From positions 1 to 41,480 of the forward strand of contig NJBH01000033.1 of the NCBI GenBank assembly GCA_005223125.1: a stretch of 41,480 bases of DNA. Reading direction: 5' to 3'. Shown here piece after piece: positions 17,011 to 41,322 of the stretch. A program made the translations under genes and the position numbers. Under the pieces are notes generated by a model that searched no databases, was not told where the DNA came from, and worked only from the letters and a program-made list of their open reading frames with translations. This DNA is from Promethearchaeota archaeon Loki_b32. Lineage in GTDB: Archaea > Asgardarchaeota > Lokiarchaeia > Sigyniarchaeales > SOKP01. Position 1 is the first letter of the stretch; every line of letters begins with the position of its first letter.

Positions 17011-17022
17011 AAAAGTATTAAA

Positions 17023-21579: not shown

Positions 21580-22420
21580 GATGGAGGATCTCAAAACTGG
21601 CGCTGAAATCACATGGTGTCCTGGATGCGGAAATTTTGGAATCTTCACAGCGATTCGAAATGCAATTCCAATATTAGAAGAAAAAGGAATTAAACGTGAA
21701 AATGTTGTTATAACAGCTGGAATAGGATGCCATGCAAAGATTTTTGATTATCTTAATTTAAGTGGGATTTATGGATTACATGGACGTAATTGTTCAAACT
21801 CAGAAGGTATCAAAATTGCGAATCCCGATTTAAAAGTAATTAACTTTTCTGGAGATGCTAATGGACTAGCTGAAGGATTAACACATACAATGTTCGCAGC
21901 AAAAAGGAATCAAGATATAACCTTTATTTTACATAACAATAGTGTGTATGCCCTTACAACGGGTCAATTTTCTCCATTAGCGGAAAAAGGTTGGAAAGGA
22001 CCCTCTACGCCCAGAGGAAGCTACGAAGAACCATTTAATCCAATGTCTTTAATGATTGAGGCTGGCGCTACTTTTGTTGCAAGAAGTTTTGCAGGAGATA
22101 TAAAGCATCTCACAGATATTATGGTACAAGGAGTTGAGCATGAAGGGTTCTCATTTATAGAGGTCTTACAACCTGCCGTTCCATACCATAAATGGGCTGA
22201 ATATAGAGAACGAGTTGAATATCTTGAAAAAGAACCAGAGACTTATTTTGAAGCCATTAAGGCTGCCAAAGAAAAACATAAGTTTACAATTGGAGTATTT
22301 TATAGAACTACAAGACCAGTTTATCATAAAGAGTTATATGATGATCATAATCCAGTTACTCAAAAAATATCAAGAGAAATAAGATTAGACAAAATCAGAA
22401 AGTTTCTCTCTGATAAATAA
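21572..22420 (+). CDS. korB: 2-oxoacid:ferredoxin oxidoreductase beta subunit
   Basis: TWCPGCGNF, GIGC, LHGR, GD..., NNSVYALTTGQ.SP TPP motif. Confidence 0.93.
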   Translation: MNKMEDLKTGAEITWCPGCGNFGIFTAIRNAIPILEEKGIKRENVVITAGIGCHAKIFDYLNLSGIYGLHGRNCSNSEGIKIANPDLKVINFSGDANGLAEGLTHTMFAAKRNQDITFILHNNSVYALTTGQFSPLAEKGWKGPSTPRGSYEEPFNPMSLMIEAGATFVARSFAGDIKHLTDIMVQGVEHEGFSFIEVLQPAVPYHKWAEYRERVEYLEKEPETYFEAIKAAKEKHKFTIGVFYRTTRPVYHKELYDDHNPVTQKISREIRLDKIRKFLSDK

Positions 22421-22510
22421 AATTTTGATATTTATTTTTTCTTGGGTTTAAAACTAATTGTTATTAAAGCAGTCAATATCTTTATTTATTCTTAAAATTC
22501 TATAATTTAT

Positions 22511-22561
22511 ATGGTCATTATCAGATTAGCAAAGATTGAAGATTGTATAAAGTGTGCTGAG
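22511..22561 (+). pseudogene. 5' stub of a probable GNAT gene (MVIIRLAKIEDCIKCAE)
   Basis: Typical GNAT N-terminus IRLAxxED, then runs into poly-A. Confidence 0.45.
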
Positions 22562-22668
22562 TTTAAAATTTTGGAACTAATAAAAAAAAAAAAAAGAAAT
22601 TTTTTACTTTCAATTTCTATTAATTTGAATCTTTTATTTTTTAGCTATTAATACACCGCTAATGTTAT

Positions 22669-23862
22669 TCATAGAACTGCGTCTAAAATGAAATCTATTA
22701 AGGTACCAGTATTATCATCATCAGCAGTAAAGACTACAACTATGTTGTCTTCTGGAATAACAATTATCCGTTGACCAGATAGACCACTGGCTGAATAATA
22801 ATTATCATAAGGCCACCATAAATATCCATATGACAACATACCCCAGGGATTTATTTGAACACTCGTCGAAATATCAATCCAATCCTCCGAAACAACTTGT
22901 CTCCCTCTCCACTTTCCTTCATTTAAACACATTAATCCAATGCGAGCCATCGCTTGATGTGTCATGAAAAGCCCGAAACCTCCATGATTTTTGATCGCTA
23001 AATCTCCTGATCCCCATGCTGAAGCTCCTTCCCACCAATCCCATTCATCATCTCGGATTTTAAGTGGTTTGAATAAGTTTTTCCGAGCAAATTCAGCCAT
23101 TGTCATTCCACTTTTATTTGCGATCATTACTGATAACATTTCTGCATTTCCACTTGTATATGTCCAAAAATCAACGGGAAAACTTGCTCCAGGTGTGTAA
23201 TCCATTGGTCTTGTAAGATAAGAATCGAGATTAAAATCAGTATAATACCAAGGCCACCAGTCGCCCAACTCATCCCATTGAATACCAGAGTTCTGTAAGA
23301 GCATATTTTCTACAGTTATATCTAATTTTCTTTCGTCACCATATGTATCAGAGTCCCACCTATCTGGGAAAACCTCGAAGAAGGTCGTATCTAAATCGAA
23401 AAGTCCATGTTCAATAGCTATTCCAGTAAGAAGAGATACGACGGATTTAGTAGCACTCCATAGACAATGCAAATTACCATTTCGAAGCTGTATAAAATCA
23501 TCGGCTTCAGGCCATACATAAATCTTTTCATCTATGCGTTCAGAGTCATCAAGATATTCTTCATTAACTATATATCCATTACGAATAATTAAGGCACTAT
23601 GAAGATCAATTTCGTTTGTTGAGATATACTCATACATTTCCTCAATCTTGCTTGAATCCATGCCTTGTGCTTCGGGAGTGCATTCCCTCCATTTATCCCA
23701 ATCAGGCCAATAATTAGACTTTTTGTATTTGTATGCAAGTACCTGAGGGGAAAAAAGACCAAGAAAGATGATGATAGTAAAAGATACTCCTATTATAGCT
23801 AATTTTGTATTACGTTTATTAATCATTTTCACCCTTTTTGTTTTAATTAAAGAATGCGACAA
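22669..23862 (-). CDS. Secreted serine hydrolase, beta-lactamase class C family
   Basis: Signal peptide, SATK (SxxK), YTS, YGYLWW, ASGLSGQ; likely start is MINKR behind GGGTGA. Confidence 0.88.
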   Translation of the reverse strand: MSHSLIKTKRVKMINKRNTKLAIIGVSFTIIIFLGLFSPQVLAYKYKKSNYWPDWDKWRECTPEAQGMDSSKIEEMYEYISTNEIDLHSALIIRNGYIVNEEYLDDSERIDEKIYVWPEADDFIQLRNGNLHCLWSATKSVVSLLTGIAIEHGLFDLDTTFFEVFPDRWDSDTYGDERKLDITVENMLLQNSGIQWDELGDWWPWYYTDFNLDSYLTRPMDYTPGASFPVDFWTYTSGNAEMLSVMIANKSGMTMAEFARKNLFKPLKIRDDEWDWWEGASAWGSGDLAIKNHGGFGLFMTHQAMARIGLMCLNEGKWRGRQVVSEDWIDISTSVQINPWGMLSYGYLWWPYDNYYSASGLSGQRIIVIPEDNIVVVFTADDDNTGTLIDFILDAVL

Positions 23863-24031
23863 AATGGTCGCAAATAATATATTTTTTTCATTATATTTAA
23901 AATTTTTTTTAAATCTTACATTTTTTTAGGATGGCTCTTTGGTGAAAGCCTGCAAACAGGGAACTTATATCATCTCTAAAAATTTAAAATTTTACCTTTT
24001 CCAATAATTAAGTTTAAATATATATAGTTTT

Positions 24032-24457
24032 TTATTTATTATTCAAGGGACCAGTACGTAATAAACTTAATACTTCTTTTTCGGTTTTGTTATCATAATC
24101 TTTTCCAGATGAGACATCCATACATCGCTCTTTATTATCTAATACATATTGAATAAATTGATCAACTCCATCCTCCTTTATACACCGAGCAAAGGCTTTG
24201 ATTTTTGGATCATAATCAGTACTATACATATCTCTATCACAAGGAAATTCTTGACATTCCCAACACCCATTTAAACCCTTTTTTAAGCAACAATTATGTT
24301 GGAAACAGCCTTCTTCACTTAAATATTTACCACAACTATTTGTTGTCGATTTACATCCACCACAAGTCTCAGATAAATGACAAAGTTTACATATCAAACC
24401 ACAATATGCAATACTTTCAATAATATCTTTTTTTATATGTTCTAGCTTTTCTGGCAT
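24032..24457 (-). CDS. DUF3795-like Cys-rich protein
   Basis: AYCGLIC..C, CGGC, CC..KGL.GCWEC.EFPC. Confidence 0.8.
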   Translation of the reverse strand: MPEKLEHIKKDIIESIAYCGLICKLCHLSETCGGCKSTTNSCGKYLSEEGCFQHNCCLKKGLNGCWECQEFPCDRDMYSTDYDPKIKAFARCIKEDGVDQFIQYVLDNKERCMDVSSGKDYDNKTEKEVLSLLRTGPLNNK

Positions 24458-24561
24458 TATTTCTTACCCTTTATGGATAGTTCTCTCAATTTATGAAAGT
24501 TGAGCATGATACAAATAAAGAGATAGTATTTAAAATTTTTTTTTTAATTTATTTTAAGAAA

Positions 24562-24690
24562 AACCTGCTGTTCCATACCATAAGTGGGAGGAATACTGAG
24601 AGCGAGTTGAATATCTTGAGAAGAGACCAGAAACGTATTTTGAAGCAATTAAGGCTTCTGTAGAAAAACATAAATTTACAATATTTTATA
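24562..24690 (+). repeat. Diverged fragment of korB 3' region (equivalent to ~22170-22305)
   Basis: Encodes PAVPYHKWEEY*ERVEYLEKRPETYFEAIKASVEKHKFTI versus PAVPYHKWAEYRERVEYLEKEPETYFEAIKAAKEKHKFTI in korB. Confidence 0.92.
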
Positions 24691-24757
24691 AAAATAATCC
24701 TTAAATATAAATGCGTTCAATAAAAAATCATTATATCATTATTATAAATTTTCTTGG

Positions 24758-25597
24758 ATGAGATTGATTAAAAAAAAGGTGAATGTATTGGAAGAAATTA
24801 GTAAAAAACATATAAACTCTAATGGAAGTATTGATAATTCAAACACCATTGAAGTGAAGGATTTAAAGAAACATTTTATAGGGAAAAAAAGTTTTAATGA
24901 CGTTAAGGCTGTTGATGGAATTTCTTTTCATGTGAAAAAAGGAGAGATTTTTGGACTTTTGGGACCTAATGGGGCTGGTAAGACAACTACAATAAATATG
25001 CTATGTGGTTTATTAAAACCTACGGAAGGGACTGCTATAGTTGGAAGTTATGATGTAAGGAAGAATCTTAATAAGGTTAAGGAATTAATTAGTGTATGCC
25101 CACAAGAAGCAGCAGTATTTCCATTTCTTACAGGTAGAGAGAATATTGAGTATTTCGGTAACATGCACCTGATGTCGAAAGAAAAAATAAAAGAGCGCGC
25201 AGAAAAACTATTAAAGTTATTAGGGTTACTTGAAGCCAGTAAGCGGAAAGCAAAACATTATAGTGGAGGAATGAAAAGACAATTAAATTTATTAGTTGCG
25301 TTAATAAACGAGCCCAAAATTCTCTTCTTAGATGAGCCGACAGTGGGAATGGACCCTCGGGTTCGACGAAAAACATGGGAGTTTATTAGTTCTATAAAAA
25401 AACAAAATAGAACCATCATCTTGACAACCCATTATATCGAAGAAGCAGAAGCCCTCTGCGATAGAGTGGCGATTATTGACTATGGGAAGTTAGTAGCACT
25501 GGGACCTCCTAAAGAATTAATGGCAGAACACAAAGCTAAAAATTTGGAAGAAGTTTTTTTAAAAATTACCGGCAGAAGAATTTTGGAGGGGATTTAA
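24758..25597 (+). CDS. ABC-2 type exporter ATP-binding protein
   Basis: GPNGAGKTT, YSGGM, LFLDEPT, TTHY; likely start is the TTG near 24788 after AGGTGA. Confidence 0.93.
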   Translation: MRLIKKKVNVLEEISKKHINSNGSIDNSNTIEVKDLKKHFIGKKSFNDVKAVDGISFHVKKGEIFGLLGPNGAGKTTTINMLCGLLKPTEGTAIVGSYDVRKNLNKVKELISVCPQEAAVFPFLTGRENIEYFGNMHLMSKEKIKERAEKLLKLLGLLEASKRKAKHYSGGMKRQLNLLVALINEPKILFLDEPTVGMDPRVRRKTWEFISSIKKQNRTIILTTHYIEEAEALCDRVAIIDYGKLVALGPPKELMAEHKAKNLEEVFLKITGRRILEGI

Positions 25598-25599
25598 TA

Positions 25600-26352
25600 A
25601 TGAAAAGACAAAGAATTCTAACTGTTTTTAGGACGGAAATGAAGAAACTGATAAGAACACCGATGTTTCTGTTTTTCTCGCTGTTTTTTGTCGCGATGCT
25701 TGTTATAATATTTGGACTTGTGCTTGGTAATAATTATGGATGGGGACCTGATTTAAGTGTTTTTGAACAAATGGTTCCGGGGATGTTTGCTTACTCAGGT
25801 ATTCTAACAATATTTACTGTCGCATCATCTGTTACTGGAGACCGCGATATTGGAGTGGAAAGAAGAATGAATACAACTCCAATTACCTCTGGAGAAGTAA
25901 TGATTGGTCAAATATTATCATATACAATTATACCAATCATCCAAACAGCTATAATGTTAATAACTGCGCTTCTCATAGGTTTTCGCCCAAATTTTTCTGT
26001 TGCTGGTGTATTATTGGTATTTGTTTTTATGATCTTTCTGTCTTTTTGCTCGGTCGGGCTTGGACTGATTACCGCTACTATTGCTAAAGATGCTAAAGCT
26101 GCAGGCGCTTTAGCTTTTATCTTTATCGTGCCACAACAGTTGTTTGGTTCATTCATATACATGGGTGAGGGAACAAAAGTAATTGGGTATTTTATGCCAA
26201 GTCAATATGTTACTGACGCTTTGTACCGAATTTCTTATGGAACCACTTTAACTGATGTGAATATTTGGATTGACCTTGTAGCAATTATAATTATAAGCTT
26301 TATAATATATGTTATCGGGTTAATATTATATGATAAGTATAAAAGCACCTAA
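25600..26352 (+). CDS. ABC-2 type exporter permease
   Basis: 6 TM segments, R..G..RR..TTP motif, adjacent to the ATPase. Confidence 0.9.
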   Translation: MKRQRILTVFRTEMKKLIRTPMFLFFSLFFVAMLVIIFGLVLGNNYGWGPDLSVFEQMVPGMFAYSGILTIFTVASSVTGDRDIGVERRMNTTPITSGEVMIGQILSYTIIPIIQTAIMLITALLIGFRPNFSVAGVLLVFVFMIFLSFCSVGLGLITATIAKDAKAAGALAFIFIVPQQLFGSFIYMGEGTKVIGYFMPSQYVTDALYRISYGTTLTDVNIWIDLVAIIIISFIIYVIGLILYDKYKST

Positions 26353-26480
26353 ATTATAATTATATGCTTAAATCTATTAATTTCTTATTTTTTTTTACCC
26401 TTTTCTTTAACTTTCTATATTCTTAAAAAACAACAATCAAATAATGTAAATTTAAAAGAGGGGATTTTATTTTTAATAAT

Positions 26481-26810
26481 ATGGATGAAAATATTGATGA
26501 TTATATAAAAAAACAGAAATCTCCTCAAAAAGAAATTTATCAAATTATAAGGAACATCATATTAAAAACCTATCCAGACATTAAAGAGGAGATGAAATAT
26601 GGAGTGCCATATTATGGGAATAAATATTATATTGTTGCATTAAAGACCCATGTTAATTTAGGTTTCTCAATCAAGGGTTTAACAACAGAAGAAATTGGCC
26701 TTTTCGAAGGTACAGGAAAAACAACAAGGCATATAAAAATTAAGTCTCAAGAAAATATTGATGAGGAAAAAATAAAAAAGCTATTAAAAATGGTAAAGAT
26801 AAAAGATTAA
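26481..26810 (+). CDS. DUF1801 (YdhG-like) protein
   Basis: IKEEMKYGVPYY, HVNLGF, EGTGKTTRHIK. Confidence 0.85.
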   Translation: MDENIDDYIKKQKSPQKEIYQIIRNIILKTYPDIKEEMKYGVPYYGNKYYIVALKTHVNLGFSIKGLTTEEIGLFEGTGKTTRHIKIKSQENIDEEKIKKLLKMVKIKD

Positions 26811-26834
26811 GGTAATTAAATTCTAATTAGAATT

Positions 26835-27730
26835 ATGGACGAAACTGACCTATTTATTGTTAGAAAACTATTAGAAAACTCTTAGAAAACTCTCGCTTAA
26901 CTTACAGAGAATTAGCCAATATGACCGATATGTCGGTCAGCGGCATACATAAACGTATAAGAAACCTTGAAGATGATGGGATTATTAATGCTTATATTGC
27001 ACGACCTAGTCTAATAGCATTAAAATATCTATGGGTTGCGATTTTTGGCACTTCTAATGCAAAATCAATGGATGCAGTTAGTAAAGAGCTTGGGCAACAT
27101 GAAAATATCAGCATGGTATGCATAACTGGAGGAAAATTTATCTATATCAAAGCTTATTTAAGAGACATATCAGAACTTCAAGAATATAGTAGTTATGTCT
27201 CAAAAGTGGCTCATATTAGTGAGCCAACTGTAGGAATTATCAATGTGCCTTACATGATAACCCCAGAACCACTTACAAGGATTGATTATAAAATATTAAA
27301 GACTCTTAACAGAGATGCTAGGAAGCCAATATCAGATATTGCAGATGATGTAGGGCTCTCAGCTAAAACTGTTAGAAAACGATTAAACCGATTGATTGAG
27401 AATAAATTAGTTACATTTACCATTCAATGGACGCCGGCATATGCAAATAGTTATTTTACAATTTTTTATCTATTTTTAAACAAAGGTACTAATCTAAATA
27501 CTACAGTTCAAAATCTCAACGAGAAATTTTCTCAGAATATTGCATATTGCTTAACTTTTAGTAATATTCCTCACTTAATTTTATTTTGTACTTTGACGAA
27601 AACTTCTAAAGACACCCAGAGAATTCAAGAAGAATTGCAGACAGAGGGATTCAAGGATATAATTCCACATATTTTCTTATCGATAATGTGGTATAACTGT
27701 TGGGTCGATCAATTACTTAGAACAAAATGA
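26835..27730 (+). pseudogene. Double-HTH Lrp/AsnC regulator frameshifted by an 11-bp tandem duplication
   Basis: ATG 26835 MDETDLFIVRKLLENS*; TTAGAAAACTA-TTAGAAAACTC-TTAGAAAACTC; removing one unit restores colinearity with 29378-30262. Confidence 0.88.
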
Positions 27731-28000
27731 AAAAATTTGATAAGATTACGTTCCCAAATCTCAACCAAATGGAAAAATTTTTGGAATTTTTTGTATCAAT
27801 TCCTTTCCATTTCAGTGTAAAGATGTGAATTTTATTGATATTATTGATTATTTTTTTATTCGAAAGTTTTATGATTTTAAGGATAAATATGCTTTCCTTC
27901 TATTTAGTGGTTATAAGCCCCCTTTGCTTTTTTTTTTCTGTATTAGTGAACATAATCTTATTAGGGCCCCAAACTATATCATAATTAACAGATTTAAAAA
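27731..28000 (+). promoter_or_regulatory. Conserved intergenic module downstream of the Lrp gene (copy 1)
   Basis: Aligns by eye to 30263-30520: TTCCCAAAT.TCAAC...TGGAAAA, TATAAGC, TTTTTTCTG, AGTGAACAT, TTATTAG.GCCCCAA, ATAATTAACA. Confidence 0.75.
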
Positions 28001-28076
28001 AAAATGAAAGGAAAAAGAAAAATGATCTATGACAAAAAAAATTTAAATCCATATCACTACGGAGGAGATTATAAAA

Positions 28077-28961
28077 ATGATGAATAAACAGACAATACTG
28101 ATTGCTGGAGCGACCGGAAACATTGGGGGAGGTGCTGCGGTCGCTTTAGCAAAACGTGGTGCTAGAGTTGTGTTACTCGGGCGTTATTCCGAAAAATTAA
28201 AAGCTAGGGCGAATCTTATCCGTAGTGCTTTATCTGAAGCACAGATCGATTATCAGGATACGGACATTGCCATGCTGGTGGTCGACTTCTCTGATATGGA
28301 GTCTGTGAATCACGCGGCAGCCGAGGCTATGAACCGATTCCCGATGATAAATGGTCTGATACTATCTGTTGGCGTTCTTATCCAAAAAGGTCCGAAACTC
28401 CTGGACAGCGGTCATGAGGTGATGTTTGCTACAAACGTGATGGGGCCGTTTTTGTTCACCCAGCTGTTGTTAAAGAGGATGCAGCAATCAGACGGATTGG
28501 TCCTTCATGTGATTAAAAAATCCTATAAAGAAATCGATTGGGATGATCTTGAAAGCATCAGAAAACACAAGACAGATACGGCATACAACAGGACCAAGAC
28601 ATGCAACCTGGTGATCGCTGCGGAGTTGGCTCGACGATATGCTGGAAAGATCTCCTCTGTAGCATTCAATCCTACGTTCATCATCGATAAATCAGACCCG
28701 GAGTTGGACAAAAGGTGGCCATCCGGATTCATGGGTTTCTTCTGGCGGCTATTGACAGTACTCCTTGCAAAGCCACCTGCGGTCGCGGGTGAGCCTATTG
28801 CGGATCTGATGCTTTCATATCGAGATCGTAGTGCAATCAATGGAGCCTTGTTCAAACTGGATAAACGCGTCAAAAAACCTTATAAGGCAATGAATGACGA
28901 GGTATTAGGAAAAAGGTTGTGGGATGAGTTGGTTCTACTAACAGGATTAAAAGCTGAATGA
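28077..28961 (+). CDS. SDR family oxidoreductase, GC-richer than host
   Basis: GATGNIGGG, MFATNVMG, YNRTK (YxxxK). Confidence 0.9.
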   Translation: MMNKQTILIAGATGNIGGGAAVALAKRGARVVLLGRYSEKLKARANLIRSALSEAQIDYQDTDIAMLVVDFSDMESVNHAAAEAMNRFPMINGLILSVGVLIQKGPKLLDSGHEVMFATNVMGPFLFTQLLLKRMQQSDGLVLHVIKKSYKEIDWDDLESIRKHKTDTAYNRTKTCNLVIAAELARRYAGKISSVAFNPTFIIDKSDPELDKRWPSGFMGFFWRLLTVLLAKPPAVAGEPIADLMLSYRDRSAINGALFKLDKRVKKPYKAMNDEVLGKRLWDELVLLTGLKAE

Positions 28962-30520: not shown

Positions 30521-30546
30521 AAAAAAAATAAAAAAGGTGGTAAAAA

Positions 30547-32536: not shown

Positions 32537-32559
32537 TATAAACTTGGAAAAGGTGGAGA

Positions 32560-33350: not shown

Positions 33351-33432
33351 AGAATAATTAATTTTAGGAGGTTTATAAACTCATTAATGGGTTTTAAAAC
33401 CTTTACTTCATTTTTTCTTTTTATCAATAAAT

Positions 33433-34092: not shown

Positions 34093-34234
34093 AATCAAAA
34101 AGAAAGTAAAACTGTGAATCTTTTATGCCCTTATTCTTTTTTTTTTTTTTTTCTGATGTTTGAAAATTTATAAATGGAGTAAAGATTAAGATTTTTTTTT
34201 GTTATATCTACTTATTTATTAGAAAAATCTTTTT

Positions 34235-34270
34235 AAACACCATCTGTATTAAATTTAATAATAGATGTTT
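34235..34270. promoter_or_regulatory. Inverted repeat (candidate operator) beside a TATA-like element
   Basis: AAACA(C)CATCT-G-TATTAAATTTAATA-AT-AGATGTTT; perfect 14-bp central palindrome. Confidence 0.45.
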
Positions 34271-34347
34271 TTAGACAAAGGTGAAAAAAAATTACACAAT
34301 ATAATAAAAAAAAAGAGGATTCTGCAGATTCGAGACATGAAAATTGT

Positions 34348-34398
34348 ATGAAAGCGATTGTATGCGCAAAATACGGTAGATTGGAGGATTCCCTTTGA
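34348..34398 (+). other. 16-codon mini-ORF MKAIVCAKYGRLEDSL* overlapping the DUF4386 start
   Basis: TGA overlaps TTG 34395; homologous copy at 35239-35289. Confidence 0.55.
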
Positions 34399-35096
34399 TT
34401 ATCCTAATAAAATTAGCAGGTTTTCTCTTTCTGTTTATTTTGGTTTTAAACCTTGTAATGGCGGCATTTGGTTATATAAACCCAGAACAGAAGATCAGCT
34501 CAGACGCTAAGATGCTGAACTCAGACGCTGAGCTGCAAAAGATTAACAAAAACGGGTCAAAAAAATTTAAAATAAGCATCGTGATAGCGCTTATAGAACA
34601 TACTTGCGTCATTGCACTTCCTATAATGTTGTTTATTGTTTTTAGTCAATATAACGCAATACTTGTTCTAATACTTGGAATTGTTTGGACCATCTTTCGA
34701 ATAGGAGAAGGCTTGATCCAAGTCTATAATGAAAAAAACTACTGGAGACTTCTCAATATAGCAAGACAATATTCAAGTACTAGTGGTGCTGAAAAAAAAT
34801 CGTTGAATGATTTAGGTAGTACAATTCTCAAAACACGAGACTCTAGATTCAAATTTGCAATGATCTTATGGTCCATTGGAACACTCGCATATTCAATCGT
34901 GTTAGTTACCTATGGAGTGTCCCCGATTATTGGATGGTTAGGAATTGTTGCCAGCATTTTAATTGGCTTCGGTAATGGGGTAAAATTTGTAAAACCTAGC
35001 TTTGAAGTATTGTCCACAATCGGAGGTCTATTGGCGATTGTATTTGAAATAATCATCGGAGGTTGGCTATTATTTTTTCCACTCATCATCCCATAG
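34395..35096 (+). CDS. DUF4386-like multi-TM membrane protein
   Basis: LAGFLFL, F..SI...LIE, RIGEG, P.IIGWLG, FEIIIGGWLL; GGAGG RBS. Confidence 0.75.
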   Translation: MIILIKLAGFLFLFILVLNLVMAAFGYINPEQKISSDAKMLNSDAELQKINKNGSKKFKISIVIALIEHTCVIALPIMLFIVFSQYNAILVLILGIVWTIFRIGEGLIQVYNEKNYWRLLNIARQYSSTSGAEKKSLNDLGSTILKTRDSRFKFAMILWSIGTLAYSIVLVTYGVSPIIGWLGIVASILIGFGNGVKFVKPSFEVLSTIGGLLAIVFEIIIGGWLLFFPLIIP

Positions 35097-35238
35097 CTGA
35101 ACTGGGAAATGTAATAATTAAAATGTTAACAAGTGAAAAGGAGTAGAAGAAAAAATTGGTGGTTTCCCTTTGAGTATCGAAATCATAAACATAATAACAA
35201 AACCTAATATGGTAAAAAAAATGGAAAATAAAAGTAAA

Positions 35239-35289
35239 ATGAAAGCGATTGTATACACCAAATACGGTAAATTGGAGAACTCCCTTTGA
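35239..35289 (+). other. Mini-ORF MKAIVYTKYGKLENSL* (in frame from ATG 35221) overlapping the next start
   Basis: Second copy of the 34348 mini-ORF. Confidence 0.55.
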
Positions 35290-35609
35290 TGGTTGAAATG
35301 ATCTTATCAGGTTTTCTCTTTCTGTTTATTATAATTACAAACGTTACAAGTGTGGAATTTAGTAATAAAATAATAAGTGATTTGAACTCAGACGCTAAGC
35401 TGCAAAAGATTAACGATAATTCTAATAAATTTAAAATAAGCATCGTGCTAGCGCTCATAGAGCATGTTAGCATAATTGCTATTAGTGTAATGTTGTTTAT
35501 TGCTTTTAGCCCATATAACATAACTCTTGAATTTATGGTAAAAGCTAATTTTAATTCAGAATATCTAAAAGACGGATTGATGAAAGATAGAGGTTTTTTA
35601 TCGGAGTAA
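35286..35609 (+). pseudogene. Truncated DUF4386 paralog (5' third only)
   Basis: Homology to 34395 ends at FSPYNI (~35525), followed by unrelated sequence. Confidence 0.8.
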
Positions 35610-35698
35610 AGCTGTAATTAGTATAACTCTGAAAAATATTATAGTTAACTTAGAAATTCAATATAAAGATTGAAAAAATAAGGAGTATTATCTATTTC

Positions 35699-36247
35699 AT
35701 GAAAATTCTAATCACATATTTTAGTCAGACGGGTAACACTGAAAAGATAGCAGAAGCAATTCACGAAATAACATCTAAGAATCATGAGTCCTACTTGAAA
35801 AGAATAAAAAAAGTTAAAATTAAAGATTTGGATGAATTTGATTTAGTTTTTATAGGTTCTGCTTGTCATGATTCTGATTTAGCTAAACCTACTTTACGAT
35901 TTCTTAAAAAGATTCCAGATTCTCCCAAATATGCGATTGCAGGTTTTTATACTCACTCAACTTATTTACCAGAAGGAGATGATAGGATTAAAAAGTTATC
36001 TGAGAAATGGTCAGGCAAATGCAATGCGACATTTGAAGAGTTAAAAAAAGAAAAGAATGCCAACTTTAAGGGTTATTTCAGATGCCAAGGAATACCATCA
36101 CTACCTATTGAAAAATTTATTCATAATACAATTATAAAAGATGATGAAGAATGGGCAGTTTTCATAGAAGAAGTAAAAAAACACCCAAATGAAAATGATA
36201 TAGAAAATGCAAAAAAATTTGCCCAAGATATTTTAAATGAATTCTAA
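35699..36247 (+). CDS. Flavodoxin family protein
   Basis: YFSQTGNTEKIAEAI, DLVFIGS, HP...D...AKKFA. Confidence 0.88.
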   Translation: MKILITYFSQTGNTEKIAEAIHEITSKNHESYLKRIKKVKIKDLDEFDLVFIGSACHDSDLAKPTLRFLKKIPDSPKYAIAGFYTHSTYLPEGDDRIKKLSEKWSGKCNATFEELKKEKNANFKGYFRCQGIPSLPIEKFIHNTIIKDDEEWAVFIEEVKKHPNENDIENAKKFAQDILNEF

Positions 36248-36320
36248 TTACTTTCACAACAGTAAGAATTGTGTAGTTTCCTTAGTCTATAATAACATGC
36301 GCATTACTTAAATGGTCTTG

Positions 36321-36428
36321 GTAGCAATTGTAATTATAAGCATTATAATATACATTATCGGGTTATTATTATACAATAAATCTAAGAGTACCTAAAGAAC
36401 AATTTATTTTAGGAGGTTGATAAACTCA
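36321..36428 (+). repeat. Third copy of the ABC permease 3' end plus the downstream flank of copy 2 (33276-33383)
   Basis: VAIVIISIIIYIIGLLLYNKSKST* followed by AGAA.AATT.ATTTTAGGAGGTT.ATAAACTCA. Confidence 0.88.
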
Positions 36429-36456
36429 CCGAGGAACAATATAATTACATCCACGG

Positions 36457-36798
36457 CTATGAAGAAGGAACAAAATCTATATTTATTTTATTATATTTTT
36501 TTAATATCTTTTCAATTTCAAATTCTGCTTCCGAAATTTTATATTTTAATGTGATATTTTTCTTTTTTAACTCATCCAACATTTCCCAGATAGAAATCCC
36601 CGCAATCTCGGCAGCTTTTCCTAGAGATATTTTGTCGTCAATATACTCTTTTAAAGCATAATCAAATTTTTCCTGAGCTACGCTTTTCCATAATAATTTT
36701 CTTATATATGCGGATTGTTCCTCTTTAAATAATTCTCTCAATTTATCAATTTCTTCTTTCAAATCATCTGGTAATATGATAGATATTTTATCTCCCAT
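36457..36798 (-). CDS. UPF0175 family antitoxin (RHH + HTH)
   Basis: ISLGKAAEIAGISIWEM; start MGDK at 36798 after AGGTGA. Confidence 0.87.
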   Translation of the reverse strand: MGDKISIILPDDLKEEIDKLRELFKEEQSAYIRKLLWKSVAQEKFDYALKEYIDDKISLGKAAEIAGISIWEMLDELKKKNITLKYKISEAEFEIEKILKKYNKINIDFVPSS

Positions 36799-37285
36799 AA
36801 TCCTCACCTTTCTCAATATATTCTTGGATAACATCTGCAGAAACCCAACTATTTTCTGCATAGTTTTTTAAGTTTGATTTATATTCAGAAAAATCAATAT
36901 TCTTTGAAATTAAAAACTCAAAAATAGTTGCTATAGTTGTTTGATGTTCAATCTGAAGGATTTGAGCTAAATTTCGAGCTTTTTTTTCATCAATTAATAA
37001 CAATTCATTTTTCTGTTTAGCTAATTCAAGTGCTTCTAGTTCCCCTCTACTTAGTGGAGGATAAAATGATTCATCAAATGAATTTAAATTAGTGACTACA
37101 ATTTTTTCTTCTTTAATAAAACTTTCAATAGTAAATGCTTCTGAATAATTCTTTAATTTTCCTTTTACAACGACCTCATCGTATACAGCTTTAGGGATGT
37201 TTATATGTTTCACCAATTTAAACAAATAGTTTATCTTTCCTAATCTGGTTAATTGAATTAATGGACTTGAATTAGATATTACCAT
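36788..37285 (-). CDS. DUF3368/PIN-like (VapC-related) toxin
   Basis: VISNSSPLI, P.AVYDE, GE.EAL.LA, LIDEKKAR. Confidence 0.88.
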   Translation of the reverse strand: MVISNSSPLIQLTRLGKINYLFKLVKHINIPKAVYDEVVVKGKLKNYSEAFTIESFIKEEKIVVTNLNSFDESFYPPLSRGELEALELAKQKNELLLIDEKKARNLAQILQIEHQTTIATIFEFLISKNIDFSEYKSNLKNYAENSWVSADVIQEYIEKGEDYGR

Positions 37286-37292
37286 ATGACAT

Positions 37293-37311
37293 TATATGAT
37301 TCTATCATATA
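37293..37311. promoter_or_regulatory. Perfect inverted repeat between TATA box and leaderless ATG of the TA operon
   Basis: TATATGAT-TCT-ATCATATA; TTTATATA on the minus strand ~25 nt upstream of ATG 37285. Confidence 0.55.
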
Positions 37312-37382
37312 TAAAGATGACTATCTCTGAGAAACTCATATATTTATTACTATATTCACTCTGGAAACTATTAAGAGTGTGA

Positions 37383-37490
37383 ATCAATTACTTAGAACTA
37401 AATGAGACTTTAATTTAAATTTCTTTCCCAAATTTCAACTATATGGAAATTATTTTGGTACTTTTGGTTCCAATATATATTCATTTGAGA
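37383..37490 (+). repeat. 3' stub of the Lrp gene (QLLRTK*) plus the first part of its downstream module
   Basis: ATCAATTACTTAGAACTAAATGAGA...TTCCCAAATTTCAACTA.ATGGAAA...ATATATTCATTTGAGA matches 30240-30347. Confidence 0.92.
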
Positions 37491-37647
37491 AATTTACTAA
37501 ATAAAAAGATTGGATATATCAAGATTAACACCAAGAAATATCTTAGGAATAATGTATTAGGTTTAAGTAGGAAAGGAACTAATTAAAATTAAAAGGAGAT
37601 AAATGTATCCTCTTTGAATAAAAAAAAAAGGAAAAAAGTTGTAGATT

Positions 37648-38301
37648 ATGGAAGAACAAAAGATAATTGAAACAGAAAATCTTAGAAAATATATTAAAAA
37701 GCTAGAAATTGATACTTATGGCGTTGCCGACATGCATTTATTAAAGGAAATGGAAACTGGACTTCCCACAGATTTGAAAAAATTCCTAAATATGTTTCCA
37801 TATGCCATAATATTAGGTGCTCAATATGGAAAGTTAGGGAAAAAAGCATCTGGAAACGACACCTCATTATTTTTAGAAGGCGCTGCCCTTTCTATAATGG
37901 ACTATTTAGAAAATAAGGGTTATAGGCAACTTATAATTCATACTGAAGATGAATTTGATCCTATTAATCGGTTAGGATTTATGTCTCTTAAAATCTTAGC
38001 AAAAACAGCTGGACTTGGTTGGCAAGGTAGGTCATTATTAATTATTTCTCCAGAATTTGGTCCTTTACATCGCTTAATTGCAATTTTAACAGACCTACCA
38101 CTTCATACTAATCAAGTAATTAAAAATGAATGTGGTAATTGCCGAAAATGTATAGAAGCATGTCCTCAGAACGCACTTACTTTTGTTGCCTTTAACGACC
38201 ATCCCACATGTCGGGAGGATGTTTTAGATATTAAGACCTGTTTAGGAGATAATGGTTGCCTGTTATATATTTTATCCTGTCCTTGGTTAAAAAAGTCTTA
38301 A
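37648..38301 (+). CDS. Epoxyqueuosine reductase/reductive dehalogenase-like Fe-S protein
   Basis: YGVAD, K..A..AGLGW.G...L.I.PEFG...RL..ILTD, CGNCRKC..ACP. Confidence 0.8.
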   Translation: MEEQKIIETENLRKYIKKLEIDTYGVADMHLLKEMETGLPTDLKKFLNMFPYAIILGAQYGKLGKKASGNDTSLFLEGAALSIMDYLENKGYRQLIIHTEDEFDPINRLGFMSLKILAKTAGLGWQGRSLLIISPEFGPLHRLIAILTDLPLHTNQVIKNECGNCRKCIEACPQNALTFVAFNDHPTCREDVLDIKTCLGDNGCLLYILSCPWLKKS

Positions 38302-38351
38302 TACTTCAAAGTAATATTATAAAATTGAATTTCAAAACATGATAATATGAT

Positions 38352-38451
38352 CTATCATAAAGAATTATATGGAGATCATAATCCAGTTACCAACAAACTA
38401 TCGAGAGATACACGATTAGATAAAATCCACAAAATTCTTGGATCTAAATAA
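38352..38451 (+). repeat. Diverged korB 3'-terminal 100 bp (equivalent to 22321-22420)
   Basis: YHKELYGDHNPVTNKLSRDTRLDKIHKILGSK*; 76/100 nt identical by hand count, ungapped. Confidence 0.93.
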
Positions 38452-38518
38452 TGAATAAGTTTTATTTTAATAATTTTATAATGTTTTAGGGATTTCTCAC
38501 AGTGAGTCTAAGAATATT

Positions 38519-38989
38519 TTACTCAGAGATTTTCCATAACTTTCCTATTTTATTAATGAGACCCCTTTTTCTATAAGAATTTATTTTATTTTTAATCTCT
38601 CTAAAATATTTCTCATTAAAAAGACAAATTCCCTCGGTAAATCCATCTAAAATCATAGGATTTCCTTGATCAATTAAAATGTGGATTTCTTGAGGTTGAT
38701 ATAAGAAAAAATCGATAGGTAAAAGTAGTATTTCCATTTTTTCTTTAACTTCATCAATTCTATCGAAAAGTTTATCATTAACCCACTTGCCAATTAATAT
38801 AAGATCTATATCGCTCCCAACATTGAAATCCAATCGGGATCTTGAGCCAATTAAAACTGCACATATCAATTTTCCTTCTAAAAGAGAGTGTGCTTCTGAA
38901 ATGAAAGAATTTAATTCTTTCAGCTCTCTTTTATGTTTTTCAAATAGTTCTCTGTTAAATTTAATATTTTTTTGCTCCACTTTAAACAA
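38519..38989 (-). CDS. MNT nucleotidyltransferase antitoxin (start uncertain)
   Basis: LIGSRSR.D...SDIDL. Confidence 0.85.
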   Translation of the reverse strand: MFKVEQKNIKFNRELFEKHKRELKELNSFISEAHSLLEGKLICAVLIGSRSRLDFNVGSDIDLILIGKWVNDKLFDRIDEVKEKMEILLLPIDFFLYQPQEIHILIDQGNPMILDGFTEGICLFNEKYFREIKNKINSYRKRGLINKIGKLWKISE

Positions 38990-39336
38990 TCTTTAGCATT
39001 TTTTTCTGTATAATAATCATGGGGAATACCTGATACAAAAGCATCTGGATATCTTGTAGGAATATAATGTTTGTCCAACTCAATTGCACATTCCATTGGA
39101 ATTTCTAATGTTAATTGTTTTTTATTCTTTATAACCTGATTTAACAAATCTCTTAATGAATGACCAAATGGCCTTAATCCAATACTATATAAAAGTGTTT
39201 TTAATGATTTCTCTGCTACTTGGTGAGATAAAAAACATACTAATTCATATGACTTAAATCCTAAATTATTTTCCGCGCTTTCTAAATCTATTCTTGCCTG
39301 TTTTAACCATCGTGCTGCTTCTTCTGAGTTTCCCAT
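38920..39336 (-). CDS. HEPN domain toxin
   Basis: W..QA..DL, HQVAEKSLK, GHSL..L, LDKHYIPTRYPD. Confidence 0.9.
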   Translation of the reverse strand: MGNSEEAARWLKQARIDLESAENNLGFKSYELVCFLSHQVAEKSLKTLLYSIGLRPFGHSLRDLLNQVIKNKKQLTLEIPMECAIELDKHYIPTRYPDAFVSGIPHDYYTEKNAKDCLKWSKKILNLTENYLKNIKES

Positions 39337-39460
39337 TGTAAATTTTAAAATCCTTAGATTAATAATCTTTTTTTATAAGTTAACCTCGTAGAAGAAAATT
39401 ATACTTAAATTTTTATGTTTTTTTTCAGAGTTAGAAAGTGTTAATCTTGGTTTTTAATCT

Positions 39461-39982
39461 TTATTTATTGTTGATTTTTTCAATTTCTTTAAGAATTTTT
39501 GAATATAAAGTGGAGGATATCCTAAATGGAGTATTTTCTATGAGAACATGAAGAAAATTTTTACATCTTTCTATGGTAATGAATTTTAATAGTAAAGATT
39601 TAATGAGGACACCAATAGTACCAGTAACTTTTAAATCTAGTGTTCTAGCAATCTCTCGTGCTGCAAAATCATCAACGATCATGATGATCTCATCAGATTC
39701 ATCCTGTAGTTCCTTTGCTAGGGCAATAACTGATGCTTCTCCGGAATGAATATGCAATTCCTTCAATCTATTAACAAGCTGTTGATTCGTTGGTTCTTTT
39801 AATGAAAGCCAGTTTGAAAAGCATTCTTTTAAAACAGAAAATTCGGGTGCATTATCATTACTTAATACCTCCTTTTTGACGATTAAAGTGGTGTAACATT
39901 CAGAAAAGAGTTTTAGAAGTAAGGATAGCGCGCCAATTTTGCCTAGATATATCAATGGTGAAGCGTTTATGATTCCGATCAT
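39461..39982 (-). CDS. DUF3368/PIN-like toxin
   Basis: INASPLIYL, GEASVIALA, VDD.AAR..A, VTGTIGVL. Confidence 0.88.
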   Translation of the reverse strand: MIGIINASPLIYLGKIGALSLLLKLFSECYTTLIVKKEVLSNDNAPEFSVLKECFSNWLSLKEPTNQQLVNRLKELHIHSGEASVIALAKELQDESDEIIMIVDDFAAREIARTLDLKVTGTIGVLIKSLLLKFITIERCKNFLHVLIENTPFRISSTLYSKILKEIEKINNK

Positions 39983-39994
39983 TATATTTGTTAT

Positions 39995-40294
39995 TCAATC
40001 TAAAGCATATTCAATATCTTCCTTCATAGCTTGTTCATCGTACCCTGATACATTCCGCTTTTTTAATTCCTCCATCATCCTCCTCAGCGAGATTCCAGCT
40101 ATCTCCGCAGCCTTCCAAGCACTTATATCTTTTTCCCCGACTTGTTTACAAAGAACTTCAAGCATTTCCTCAGTAAGAGTTTTCTCTAATAATTGACGGA
40201 TGTAGGATGATTTATCTTTTTTTTTTAATCTTGCCATTAAGAAGCTTAACTTTTCGTCAAGATCATCATCTATTCTTACTGATAGAATTTTCAT
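39995..40294 (-). CDS. UPF0175 family antitoxin
   Basis: LSVRID RHH, ISAWKAAEIAGISLR. Confidence 0.87.
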   Translation of the reverse strand: MKILSVRIDDDLDEKLSFLMARLKKKDKSSYIRQLLEKTLTEEMLEVLCKQVGEKDISAWKAAEIAGISLRRMMEELKKRNVSGYDEQAMKEDIEYALD

Positions 40295-40370
40295 AATTGT
40301 TCTAAGTATACTAGATCATTTCTTGTATATATAATTATTTTCTTAAAATTAATTCATTTTGGTATGAAAA

Positions 40371-40418
40371 CTGTCGGGGGATACCCGATTAGATAAAATC
40401 CGTAAAATTATTGGATGT
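40371..40418 (+). repeat. Third, shortest korB 3' stub
   Basis: LSGDTRLDKIRKIIG; GATAC.CGATTAGATAAAATCC shared with 38407-38428. Confidence 0.8.
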
Positions 40419-40553
40419 CAATTCTCTCCATAACAGAATAAAATTCCTTATCATCAATTTTTAATTTTTTAATTATAACTAAAAAGTTAATTTTTAGATA
40501 AAATATTTTAATTTCTGAAAAAACATAAATATTCTGAAAACGATATATATTTT

Positions 40554-40814
40554 ATGACTATTCAAGATAAGACTGTTGTTGGAAAAAAAGGAGAAATTTT
40601 GCCAAAAAAACCATTACGAGATGCGTCCGGCATTAGACCTGGGGATGAGGTATTAATTGAAGCCCATCCAGGTGAATTAATTATAAAGAAGATTTATTCT
40701 GTCGAAGAAGCATTATCTATGCCCATCATTGCTACAGGTACTCCTGAGAATATTGAAAGAGATATTGAAAAGGAGAGAAAGGTTCAGGAGAAATTAACTA
40801 ATGAAGAACATTAA
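40554..40814 (+). CDS. AbrB/MazE/SpoVT family antitoxin (VapB)
   Basis: VGKKGEILPKKPLR...GIRPGDEV; upstream direct repeat TTCTGAAAA x2 (40513, 40532). Confidence 0.87.
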   Translation: MTIQDKTVVGKKGEILPKKPLRDASGIRPGDEVLIEAHPGELIIKKIYSVEEALSMPIIATGTPENIERDIEKERKVQEKLTNEEH

Positions 40815-41301
40815 TTCAATAATTCTCGATACAACATATGTTTTACCTCTTTTTGGTATCAAAATAGAACTTTCTCTCAAATTTGAAGAACAAATAAAAA
40901 TATTATGGAAAAATGGTATAAATGAATATAAAGTATTTCTCCCTTCAGTTTGTCTAATAGAAACTGTTTTTAAGCTTCTTAATGAATATAGAAAGAAAAA
41001 TGAATTCAATATTTTAGATAGATATCAACTGATACTCCCAACTATTTTAAATTCACCTATCGACATGTTCAATCCCGAATTAAATCCAAAAGCTAGTTTA
41101 ATAGCTTCAATTATCAGACACTCAGGTCATATGGATTTTATGGATTGCTGGATCGCAGGAGCAGCAGTTGCTCTTGAAGGTATTCTTTTAACTGAGGATA
41201 AAGACCTAGAAAAAGTTCTTAGAACAATTCCAGAAACTAAAACAGTTACCATATGGTCATGGAATAAACTAATAACTGAGACAATGAAAAAGAAGAAATA
41301 A
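40801..41301 (+). CDS. PIN domain VapC toxin
   Basis: ILDTT, ..E, DFMDC.I...A, LLTED. Confidence 0.87.
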   Translation: MKNINSIILDTTYVLPLFGIKIELSLKFEEQIKILWKNGINEYKVFLPSVCLIETVFKLLNEYRKKNEFNILDRYQLILPTILNSPIDMFNPELNPKASLIASIIRHSGHMDFMDCWIAGAAVALEGILLTEDKDLEKVLRTIPETKTVTIWSWNKLITETMKKKK

Positions 41302-41322
41302 ATATAATATGTTAAAATTATG

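Follow-up and report, generated by a model that had tools for sequence, protein, structure and literature searches.

Gene-tail displacement probably built a korB-ugd genomic island in a Loki-type Asgard archaeon

The 18.9-kb spacer that separates the convergent, tail-to-tail genes korB and ugd (UDP-sugar dehydrogenase gene) of Promethearchaeota archaeon Loki_b32, a Loki-type Asgard archaeon, carries accessory genes and is probably a flexible genomic island, grown and reshuffled by gene-tail (C-terminal) displacement. Incoming DNA from a related cell would carry the 3' part of an anchor gene together with different downstream genes, recombine homologously inside the anchor gene and be joined at its far end non-homologously, a few tens of bases off in the same gene. 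The anchor gene would remain intact with an imported tail, and its old tail would become a stub that is shifted outward with everything behind it. With two tail copies present, homologous recombination between them could loop cassettes out or take circular cassettes in, and no recombinase encoded by the island would be required.

We analysed contig NJBH01000033.1, positions 1-41,480 (the window), against 80 related Promethearchaeota loci with korAB (given as L numbers below); all genomes are short-read MAGs. The following features were found in the window:

19918-21579, plus strand: korA, fused gamma/alpha subunit of a 2-oxoacid:ferredoxin oxidoreductase (Pfam POR_N, POR); conserved left flank
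21572-22420, plus strand: korB, intact beta subunit and left anchor (Pfam TPP_enzyme_C, PFO_beta_C)
22669-24457, minus strand: cargo 1, a beta-lactamase-fold gene (22669-23862) and a DUF3795 gene (24032-24457) (Pfam)
24562-24696, plus strand: stub 1, korB nt 599-739 (22170-22310) (blastn E 5e-32, nhmmer E 1.6e-22)
24758-38301, plus strand: cargo 2, a mosaic of accessory genes (Pfam, GC profile)
33121-33383, plus strand: orphan ABC-2 permease tail and trailer, 92% identical to 26123-26385
35239-35519, plus strand: orphan DUF4386 head fragment, 74% identical to 34348-34655
36305-36428, plus strand: second orphan ABC-2 permease tail, 83-87% identical to the other copies
37383-37490, plus strand: orphan HTH-regulator tail, 89% identical to 30240-30347
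38350-38486, plus strand: stub 2, korB nt 748-849 including the stop codon, with about 35 nt of native trailer; genus-type tail
38519-39336, minus strand: MNT/HEPN toxin-antitoxin-like pair (Pfam NTP_transf_2, HEPN)
39461-40342, minus strand: DUF3368 (PIN-like)/UPF0175 pair with promoter region, a recurrent cassette (Pfam)
40368-40422, plus strand: stub 3, korB nt 793-847, stop codon gone; 84% identical to 38395-38449 (E 3e-9)
40554-41301, plus strand: MazE-like/PIN pair (Pfam); the same block occurs in L056, L058 and L032
41323-41480, minus strand: 3' end of ugd, conserved right flank, truncated by the contig end (tblastn with the L062 ugd product)

The korA-korB arrangement is collinear in 80 of 80 related loci, and the right island border is the stop codon of ugd. 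Matches by blastn and nhmmer bear out the three korB 3' fragments that the initial annotation had seen downstream of the intact gene, all in direct orientation (24562-24696, 38350-38451 and 40368-40422), each followed by different cargo: an ABC transporter, the MNT/HEPN and DUF3368/UPF0175 pairs, and MazE/PIN. Stub 1 is about 81-85% identical to resident korB and 86% to the best other allele; it is a pseudogene because of an in-frame TGA and a 6-nt deletion. As its final 110 nt are missing and it is equally near the resident and other alleles, its sequence suggests that it could be a self-duplication of resident korB. Stub 2 (22322-22420, korB nt 751-849, against 38353-38451; E 2.6e-16, nhmmer E 2.2e-17) is about 75-77% identical to the resident gene overall and 84% across the first 75 nt. 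Together with the adjacent MNT2 it forms a single block, 88.5% identical over 600 nt to L032, where the two are contiguous, as expected from the earlier proposal that old ends keep their old neighbours. Stub 3 matches the resident tail at only 60-69% identity and shares 87-89% with the allele of L085 and with a stub of L083. Each distal stub resembles the other more than it does the resident tail, as had been noted (peptides SRDTRLDKIHKILGSK and SGDTRLDKIRKIIGCQ; resident counterpart SREIRLDKIRKFLSDK). The argument that conserved peptides point to once-functional alleles lacks statistical power. Stubs 1 and 2 span complementary portions of korB and may derive from a single old tail into which 13.6 kb was inserted.

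Resident korB is itself a mosaic. By an informative-site scan and alignment rows, it is of genus type (L032/L053-like) up to 22338 and of L039 type from 22344 to the stop codon. Sliding identity and the alignment put its final 78 nt at 97% identity to L039 (2 mismatches), and the adjacent beta-lactamase-fold gene is 90-96% identical to that of L039, compared with ~81% for the rest of korAB. This supports the proposed homologous crossover in korB and the joint travel of tail and cargo, both resident tail and adjacent gene being L039-like. Stub 2 starts 20 nt ahead of the ancestry switch. The initial annotation had read the stubs as foreign alleles; sequence comparison points mostly the other way, with the resident korB tail as the foreign allele and the stubs mostly as displaced native-type ends. 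Adjacency of korB to the beta-lactamase-fold gene is common to L039 and L045, and korB lies next to the DUF3795 gene, without the beta-lactamase-fold gene, in L033 and L098.

Scars of the same kind involve genes inside the island. Cargo 2 comprises an ABC ATPase with an ABC-2 permease, a DUF1801 gene and two HTH regulators around an SDR gene of 44% GC, followed by a condensation-domain gene, GNAT, DUF4386, flavodoxin, a UPF0175/PIN-like pair on the minus strand, and Fer4; its modules are found again, differently ordered, in L053, L074, L076, L038 and L098. The Fer4 promoter and first 9 codons are copied at 32943-33120 (93% identical to 37497-37674), and at junction 33120/33121 this copy is joined to the orphan ABC-2 permease tail. 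The DUF3368/UPF0175 block lies directly behind intact korB in L032, L036 and L056 and behind a stub in L058, with 83-85% identity and identical ends; in four genomes this cassette is followed by a stub, of 55 to 226 nt.

In related Promethearchaeota, the shortest korB-ugd spacer measures 85 nt and the longest at least 9.7 kb. Tail stubs of korB were found in 16 of 80 related loci, and every one of the approximately 23 stubs was downstream and direct, with none inverted or upstream. Their 5' ends extend from alignment column 219 to column 777, and several starts group at korB nt 722-760 with no single shared nucleotide. Tail stubs of ugd were found in three related loci (L064, L043 and L062). 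Anchoring on korB, as initially proposed, holds for the korB events but is not exclusive, as events also occurred on ugd and on genes inside the island.

Several relatives provide cleaner cases, including of the illegitimate second join, and ancestry breakpoints comparable to that of resident korB adjoin stubs in L037, L075 and L064. In L037, korB is L038-like to column 597 and L061-like from column 620, and the cargo is L061-like and terminates exactly at an L038-like stub; microhomology at this illegitimate junction is ≤4 nt. Similarly, the korB of L075 switches ancestry at columns 181/183, and column 219 is where its stub begins. For ugd, L064 corresponds to L065/L067 plus 1.79 kb and a 266-nt repeat; relative to sister-genome tails, its stub is 91-95% and its intact tail 79-80% identical, the stub being native-like and the intact tail foreign. 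In L047 and L062, the divergent copy is the stub, not the intact tail. Across five events, the ancestry crossover lies -130 to +60 nt from the stub boundary, a closeness that classical homology-facilitated illegitimate recombination (HFIR) does not predict and that may point to copying coupled to a break, or to a preferred site.

The loci L083 and L085 have flanks that are 95-96% identical and differ by a 4.6-kb indel. As far as column 813 the L085 tail matches the intact copy of L083, and from column 831 onward it matches the stub of L083, which is a reciprocal crossover inside the repeat. Such recombination between tail copies adds or removes cassettes, and cassette order differs between genomes, both contrary to the polar, chronological array that had been suggested. 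The earlier mechanism is largely supported and the earlier reading as a whole in part, with homologous crossover in korB retained and strict polarity abandoned. The history of the Loki_b32 array admits no unique reconstruction. Neither excised circles nor transfer events were seen, and we infer whether the DNA came in linear or circular, by which route it was transferred, which enzymes took part and in which order the events of the window took place.

The polarity of the scars extends across the Loki_b32 genome. Counting fragments outside large ORFs, 30 orphan tails lie downstream of their own gene versus 6 upstream, and 10 orphan heads lie upstream versus 3 downstream; no inverted orphan tails or heads were found among such fragments. 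Orphan tails are present at about 30 other genes.

A site-specific integrase acting at the korB 3' end could in principle produce a similar layout, if the stubs were attR-type remnants of integrative elements that carried a replacement tail and whose integrases have decayed or act in trans. This pattern is known from e14 or phage 21 at icd, from tRNA-targeting islands and from tycheposons. The order of intact gene, cargo and displaced 3' fragment is the classic one, the partial grouping of stub starts would fit, and the genome has three tyrosine-recombinase genes, all on other contigs; a recombinase encoded elsewhere in the genome may act in trans. However, we consider this explanation unlikely: stub 5' ends scatter across about 560 nt, one cassette is followed by stubs of differing length between genomes, and ugd, ABC-2 permease, HTH-regulator, DUF4386 and Fer4 genes have also left stubs. 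The three tyrosine recombinases, none of them nearby, contrast with the roughly 30 other genes with orphan tails. In agreement with the initial annotation, the contig contains no integrase or transposase (0 matches to PF00589, PF00239, PF07282, PF01609 and PF00665), nor any tRNA or Rfam RNA; no tyrosine recombinase was found in the islands of five relatives, and stub boundaries vary. No korB relative or korB tail was found on IMG/VR contigs.

The remaining alternatives concern where the two tail copies came from. Insertion at a staggered break with a true long target duplication, in which both copies derive from the recipient, has been described in Helicobacter and other bacteria for restriction-modification genes, which are selfish modules as toxin-antitoxin cassettes are. 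Repeats of 55-480 nt suit that class (PMC2853133), the stub that L032 has at position 11789 matches its own gene at 93% identity, stub 1 is about equally close to resident and other alleles, and stretches of 20-60 nt seem native in both copies (window, L037 and L062). In the window, L037, L075 and L064, however, the intact tail differs in ancestry from the rest of its gene while the stub is of native type, and the imported tail is accompanied by adjacent cargo, making this account improbable. Local tandem duplication of the region next to korB through unequal crossing-over, with differential deletion and divergence afterwards and no foreign DNA, is consistent with repeats that are all direct and local and with paralogous blocks in the island (26813-28009 versus 29356-30533, 76%). 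It is nevertheless very doubtful, as unrelated content lies between the same repeats (26123-33120 versus 33121-37674), cassettes reappear in other genomes in a different order, and the resident tail, like the beta-lactamase-fold gene, sides with alleles from elsewhere, sharing 97% identity with an allele of another genome and 75% with its own stub. A chimeric assembly, stringing alternative island alleles of co-occurring strains into one contig, might be suspected in a short-read MAG whose contig stops inside ugd, with the remaining ugd absent from the assembly, and whose repeats show the 76-93% identity to be expected of strain or species variants. Yet the junctions share no k-mer able to cause a false join, and independent MAGs from other studies have the same types of junction: Fer4-stub in L038, stub-MNT2 in L032, toxin-antitoxin cassette then stub in L032, L036 and L058, PIN-ugd in L056, and the Fer4 head joined to an ABC-2 fragment in L074. 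With stubs also in 16 other loci, a chimera is extremely improbable.

Gene-tail displacement is already known from bacterial toxin loci, and the kind of process is not new; in the literature searched, we found no description for archaea of such integrase-free DNA import through ordinary recombination. The nearest counterpart is the C-terminal displacement of Rhs and type VI secretion (T6SS) genes. In Rhs genes of Enterobacteriaceae (Jackson et al. 2009, PMC2935791), as here, the intact gene keeps a conserved 5' core, laterally acquired 3' ends replace the old end, displaced ends ('tips') accumulate downstream in direct orientation, and core and tip are phylogenetically decoupled. Jackson et al. 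proposed homologous recombination with circular intermediates, with which the reciprocal crossover in L083/L085 is consistent. Unlike Rhs, a polymorphic toxin whose new tail is a toxin domain, the anchor here is a metabolic housekeeping gene (korB, or ugd on the other side), its new tail is an ordinary allele, and the cargo (toxin-antitoxin pairs, transporters and regulators) is unrelated to it; the host is an Asgard archaeon with the same scars at about 30 other genes.

Effector-immunity modules of the Vibrio cholerae T6SS are displaced sequentially by homology-facilitated illegitimate recombination (Kirchberger et al. 2017, PMC5361080), likewise with a single upstream homologous anchor and a single illegitimate join, the old 3' end and its neighbour being shifted backwards and successive events generating arrays. 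Those authors drew the integron analogy and reported no evidence of a role for an integrase. The Vibrio arrays are explained by selection for retained immunity genes, whereas no such link between anchor and cargo is evident here. In five events here, moreover, the crossover and the illegitimate join are no more than about 130 nt apart. Restriction-modification genes inserted with a long target duplication (Nobusato et al. 2000, as cited in Furuta et al. 2010, PMC2853133) likewise form small selfish cassettes without mobility genes, lying between direct repeats that are long and variable and in many cases overlap a gene 3' end. In that class both repeat copies come from the target, whereas in the best-resolved events here the intact copy was imported. 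Additive flexible genomic islands and tycheposon arrays with repeated tRNA 3' ends, such as Ca. Methylopumilus fGI-2 (PMC10872708), also occupy a fixed hotspot beside a conserved gene, range from a few hundred bp to tens of kb and have spare gene-end copies separating cargo blocks. Those arrays have short repeats with a fixed length of about 20 nt, ascribed to site-specific elements, in contrast to the present repeats of 55-480 nt with variable boundaries, protein-coding anchors and signatures of homologous recombination. Finally, although it has no IntI, attI, attC or common promoter, mixes gene orientations and is not strictly polar, the korB island resembles integrons in stacking cassettes, mostly of one or two genes each, with newer units able to push older ones outward.

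The korB anchor gene lies on contig C52, whose full 41,480 nt make up the window; it is 1 of 71 contigs of the Loki_b32 metagenome-assembled genome (MAG), a 4.13-Mb assembly with a GC content of about 29%. The closest korB loci in public genomes belong, without exception, to Promethearchaeota (Loki-type Asgard archaea). Because korB and ugd, the UDP-sugar dehydrogenase gene at the contig's end, are convergent conserved genes, the island described in the initial annotation is a tail-to-tail spacer of 18.9 kb (22421-41322). As cargo, the island carries small accessory genes, four toxin-antitoxin-like pairs among them. The list below gives its flanking genes and the detached gene ends strewn within it, three of which (the stubs) derive from korB.

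19918-21579, korA, alpha/gamma subunit of 2-oxoacid:ferredoxin oxidoreductase
21572-22420, korB, beta subunit of the same enzyme
24562-24696, direct orientation, stub 1, equivalent to korB nt 599-739 (81% identity)
32943-33120, copy of the Fer4 promoter and first nine codons
33121-33383, orphan ABC-2 permease tail
35239-35519, orphan DUF4386 head
36305-36428, orphan ABC-2 permease tail
37383-37490, orphan HTH-regulator tail
38350-38451, direct orientation, stub 2, equivalent to korB nt 748-849 (77-84% identity), which keeps its stop codon and a trailer of about 35 nt
40368-40422, direct orientation, stub 3, equivalent to korB nt 793-847 (84% identity to stub 2, 60-69% to the resident korB)
last 158 nt of the contig, minus strand, 3' end of ugd

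Self-comparison of the window recovered all three direct copies of korB 3' sequence where the initial annotation had placed them. Stub 1 carries a 6-nt deletion and an in-frame TGA, and is about as similar to the resident korB (85%) as to the best other allele (86%). Stub 3 most closely matches a stub at the related korB locus L083 (89%), followed by the L085 allele (87%). Ratios of dN/dS for the stubs, calculated from too few sites to carry weight, resemble those between functional alleles of the weakly constrained korB tail.

One indication of how these fragments arose came from the resident korB itself. In a scan of informative sites, the gene resembled the L032 and L053 alleles through alignment column 770 (window position 22338) and the L039 allele from column 776 (22344) through the stop codon. 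The last 78 nt differ from L039 by only 2 mismatches, and every other allele is at most 77% identical in this segment. The adjacent beta-lactamase-fold gene, located 3' of korB, is also shared with L039 at 90-96% identity, compared with about 81% for korAB. Stub 2 begins 20 nt ahead of the switch and has a tail of the usual genus type. Taken together, the L039-type end, the shared beta-lactamase-fold gene and the genus-type stub indicate that a tail plus its cargo was imported through a crossover in korB, and that a native-type tail, displaced, now lies downstream. The stubs had initially been taken for once-functional foreign alleles; stub 2 is instead the usual tail of the genus, and it is the resident end that is L039-like. 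A reciprocal (Campbell-type) pattern was looked for in stub 2 and not seen. The korB coordinates of stubs 1 and 2 (599-739 and 748-849) are complementary, and the two may be a single old tail that was cut apart by a 13.6-kb insertion.

Displacement through a crossover was also legible in relatives, and more cleanly than in the window. An intact gene with a core and tail of different ancestry, and with the tail linked to the adjacent cargo, was found in the window and at L037 and L075 for korB, and at L064 for ugd. The korB gene of L037 follows the L038 allele through column 597 and the L061 allele from column 620; the 1.15 kb of cargo behind it is L061-like and ends exactly at the start of an L038-like stub, to which it is joined at korB nt ~575 with no more than 4 nt shared. 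At L075, the parent switch falls at columns 181/183 and the stub starts at column 219. L064 matches L065/L067 apart from an additional 1.79 kb and a 266-nt repeat of ugd; identity to the sister tails is 91-95% for its stub but only 79-80% for its intact tail. The sharp switches in the window, L037 and L075 reveal a homologous crossover at one end, and L037, with a similar junction in L064, reveals at the other a non-homologous join that has little microhomology or none, two features of homology-facilitated illegitimate recombination (HFIR). HFIR would also call for the uptake of linear foreign DNA, by natural transformation or another route. In five events, the position of the crossover relative to the stub boundary ranges from 130 nt before it to about 60 nt after it, a closeness for which plain HFIR does not account.

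The core of the mechanism proposed in the initial annotation, namely a crossover in korB, an illegitimate join and outward displacement, is therefore supported by the switch in the window and by L037, L075 and L064. Its strict polarity and chronology need correction. Loci L083 and L085 have flanks that are 95-96% identical and differ in length by 4.6 kb, and the L085 tail is like the L083 intact copy through column 813 and like the L083 stub from column 831. This pattern is the signature of one reciprocal crossover within the repeat, by circle integration or loop-out, and lends indirect support to circular intermediates that carry a tail plus its cargo. At L047 and L062, the divergent copy is the stub, so the outcomes are not uniform. 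We also observed that an ORF in the inserted DNA of L064 (14158-14427, minus strand) continues through the displaced ugd tail, so that its last residues (RAIGRINLE) are those of the ugd C terminus; a neighbouring reading frame can thus take its end from a stub.

To place the window among its relatives, we compared 80 related korB loci, all from MAGs. Convergent korB and ugd neighbours were found in about 40 loci (those in which both genes were reached), with spacers ranging from 85 nt (L035) to at least 9.7 kb. Spacer modules recur among these loci in differing order, and the region is, in content and size, a flexible genomic island between conserved flanks. Fragments of the korB tail were present in 16 of the 80 loci, downstream and direct in every case; with the window included, about 23 stubs in 17 loci all lie downstream of korB in direct orientation. 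Fragments of the ugd tail were found on the ugd side of three loci (L043, L062 and L064). Many junction types of the window recur in independent MAGs, which argues against a chimeric assembly: Fer4-stub in L038, stub 2 followed by MNT2 in L032 (88.5% identity over 600 nt), a DUF3368/UPF0175 cassette with a stub after it in L032, L036 and L058, and PIN-ugd in L056. Exact-pattern scans of JGI metagenome contigs for strain variants gave no match. Fixed cassette ends were set aside for the DUF3368/UPF0175 block: the ends that its copies share fall where the coding sequence ends, and may only mark where conservation stops.

Site-specific systems were weighed against the same junctions. An integron fails its defining tests: there is no IntI-type tyrosine recombinase beside the array, and a repeat scan and self-BLAST yielded no attC-type imperfect inverted repeats, the repeats present being direct copies of gene fragments and AT-rich inverted pairs that are due to chance. 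An integrase-mediated island at a gene 3' end (as in e14/icd, tRNA islands or tycheposons) would leave a displaced 3' target fragment in direct orientation beyond the insert, and this is indeed present. This explanation fails on the recombinase and on a fixed att core. The contig has no match to tyrosine recombinases (PF00589), serine recombinases, TnpB, DDE_Tnp_1 or rve, and no recombinase gene lies within the island of the window, nor a tyrosine recombinase gene within those of five relatives. The 5' ends of stubs are spread over profile positions 219 to 777, with 3' ends mostly at the gene end, and even junctions clustered within korB nt 722-760 differ by up to about 40 nt. No motif was shared across stub junctions; the Fer4-head motif was rejected as a candidate, as it is present, besides its own two copies in the window, only in L053, L074 and L098. 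A tRNA or non-coding RNA anchor was dropped, as neither ARAGORN nor Rfam gave a match within the window. A mobile element carrying a korB tail was likewise rejected, as no viral contig in IMG/VR encodes a korB relative and the sole match was a chance one to a 56%-GC contig.

Several features of the island and its surroundings were observed in passing. The Fer4 head (promoter plus ATGGAAGAACAAAAGATAATTGAAAC) is joined to the ABC-2 permease, in the window (32943-33121) at aa 196 and in L074 (15068-15105) at aa 87; the Fer4 breakpoints agree within 1-2 nt, those in the permease do not, and both fusions are out of frame. Directly 5' of the Fer4-head copy is a decayed gene, a frameshifted response-regulator receiver domain (32632-32946). 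A short-chain dehydrogenase gene (28077-28961) has a GC content of 44%, versus 29% for the genome, is flanked by 1.2-kb direct repeats (26813-28009 and 29356-30533; HTH-regulator blocks, 76% identical) and looks like a recent foreign capture. On the other side of korAB, an MNT/HEPN pair that lies 5' of korA in the window (18799-19766) and in L032 sits 3' of korB in L062 (11630-12597) and L066 (3561), with 90-95% protein identity between the window and these two loci. The 45 nt after HEPN (19833-19877) resemble the 45 nt after the korB stop (22476-22520; 80%). Another truncated gene beside the operon, a 94-aa ORF (18048-18332, minus strand), covers no more than the C-terminal portion of a GNAT acetyltransferase (profile positions 81-138 of 138). 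Further upstream, a cluster that is conserved and syntenic in many relatives (12927-18045) encodes a RING-like protein, a radical SAM/SPASM enzyme, an 86-aa ORF, a methyltransferase-TPR protein and a CBM96-like protein, and may serve in peptide modification; at several loci, the korB-ugd spacer also contains paralogues of the RING-like gene. A korB match (E<=1e-30) was absent from 7 of 24 sampled genomes of the genus (G003, G006, G010, G013, G017, G020 and G023), including two single-contig genomes, and within the genus this korAB operon may itself belong to the accessory genes.

To assess orphan gene ends genome-wide, we searched each of 3,241 called ORFs against the genome and counted partial copies within 40 kb and outside large ORFs. 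Orphan tails were found downstream of their own gene in 30 cases and upstream in 6, and orphan heads downstream in 3 and upstream in 10; none of these copies was inverted. The 30 downstream tails have a median length of 131 nt, identity of 87% and distance of 2.1 kb, indicating that the process is not specific to korB. Orphan tails occur on many contigs (for example, C21:201102-201175, C47:16026-16255 and C49:113767-113905), and some are 96-99% identical to the intact gene, suggesting recent events. The genome encodes only three tyrosine recombinases (PF00589; on contigs C36, C3 and C21) and a handful of genes of transposase type, and it lacks serine recombinases.

Collectively, our results describe, concretely and at the level of sequence, how an uncultured Asgard archaeon with a genome almost devoid of integrases and transposases gains and shuffles accessory genes, including toxin-antitoxin pairs, transporters, regulators and a high-GC foreign dehydrogenase. 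We tentatively raise the possibility, which we think rather unlikely, that gene-end displacement serves Asgard archaea in general as a way to gain genes without an integrase, via break repair and end joining. In such a route, a break near a gene end would be repaired by copying from a diverged homologue, through a template switch or strand invasion; copying would continue into foreign cargo, end joining would then close near the break, and leftover spare tails would act as portable homology for later cassette exchange. Both the closeness of crossover and illegitimate join in the five events (-130 to +60 nt) and the roughly 30 orphan tails genome-wide would fit. These patterns could stem from a repair pathway that is dedicated to the process or typical of the lineage. 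The scars make single transfer events readable (donor type, crossover point and illegitimate join), and thus open recombination and end joining in the closest archaeal relatives of eukaryotes to study from metagenomes. They also carry a warning for annotation: a short ORF in an island of this kind may be the displaced tail of a gene, and a housekeeping gene next to a hotspot can be a mosaic.

Contrary to what the initial annotation had supposed, the pattern is not new in kind. The pattern and the steps inferred for it correspond to C-terminal displacement at Rhs loci, for which homologous recombination with circular intermediates has been proposed (PMC2935791), and the sequential displacement of T6SS effector-immunity modules by HFIR (PMC5361080). 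Common to both is an intact gene followed by direct orphan 3' ends, of which the window has three. The insertion of restriction-modification genes with long target duplication (PMC2853133) and additive islands with tRNA-end repeats (PMC10872708) also resemble it, with differences. Our literature search found no paper on such displacement in Asgard archaea, with full reading limited to the Heimdallarchaeum paper, in which elements are linked to integrase and tRNA. At Rhs and T6SS loci, the variable tail is a toxin domain with its cognate immunity gene, whereas the korB tail is an ordinary enzyme C terminus (PFO_beta_C) and its cargo is unrelated to korB. The observation is confirmed, and we regard it as a known type of process in a new setting, that of an Asgard archaeon and a protein-coding housekeeping anchor.
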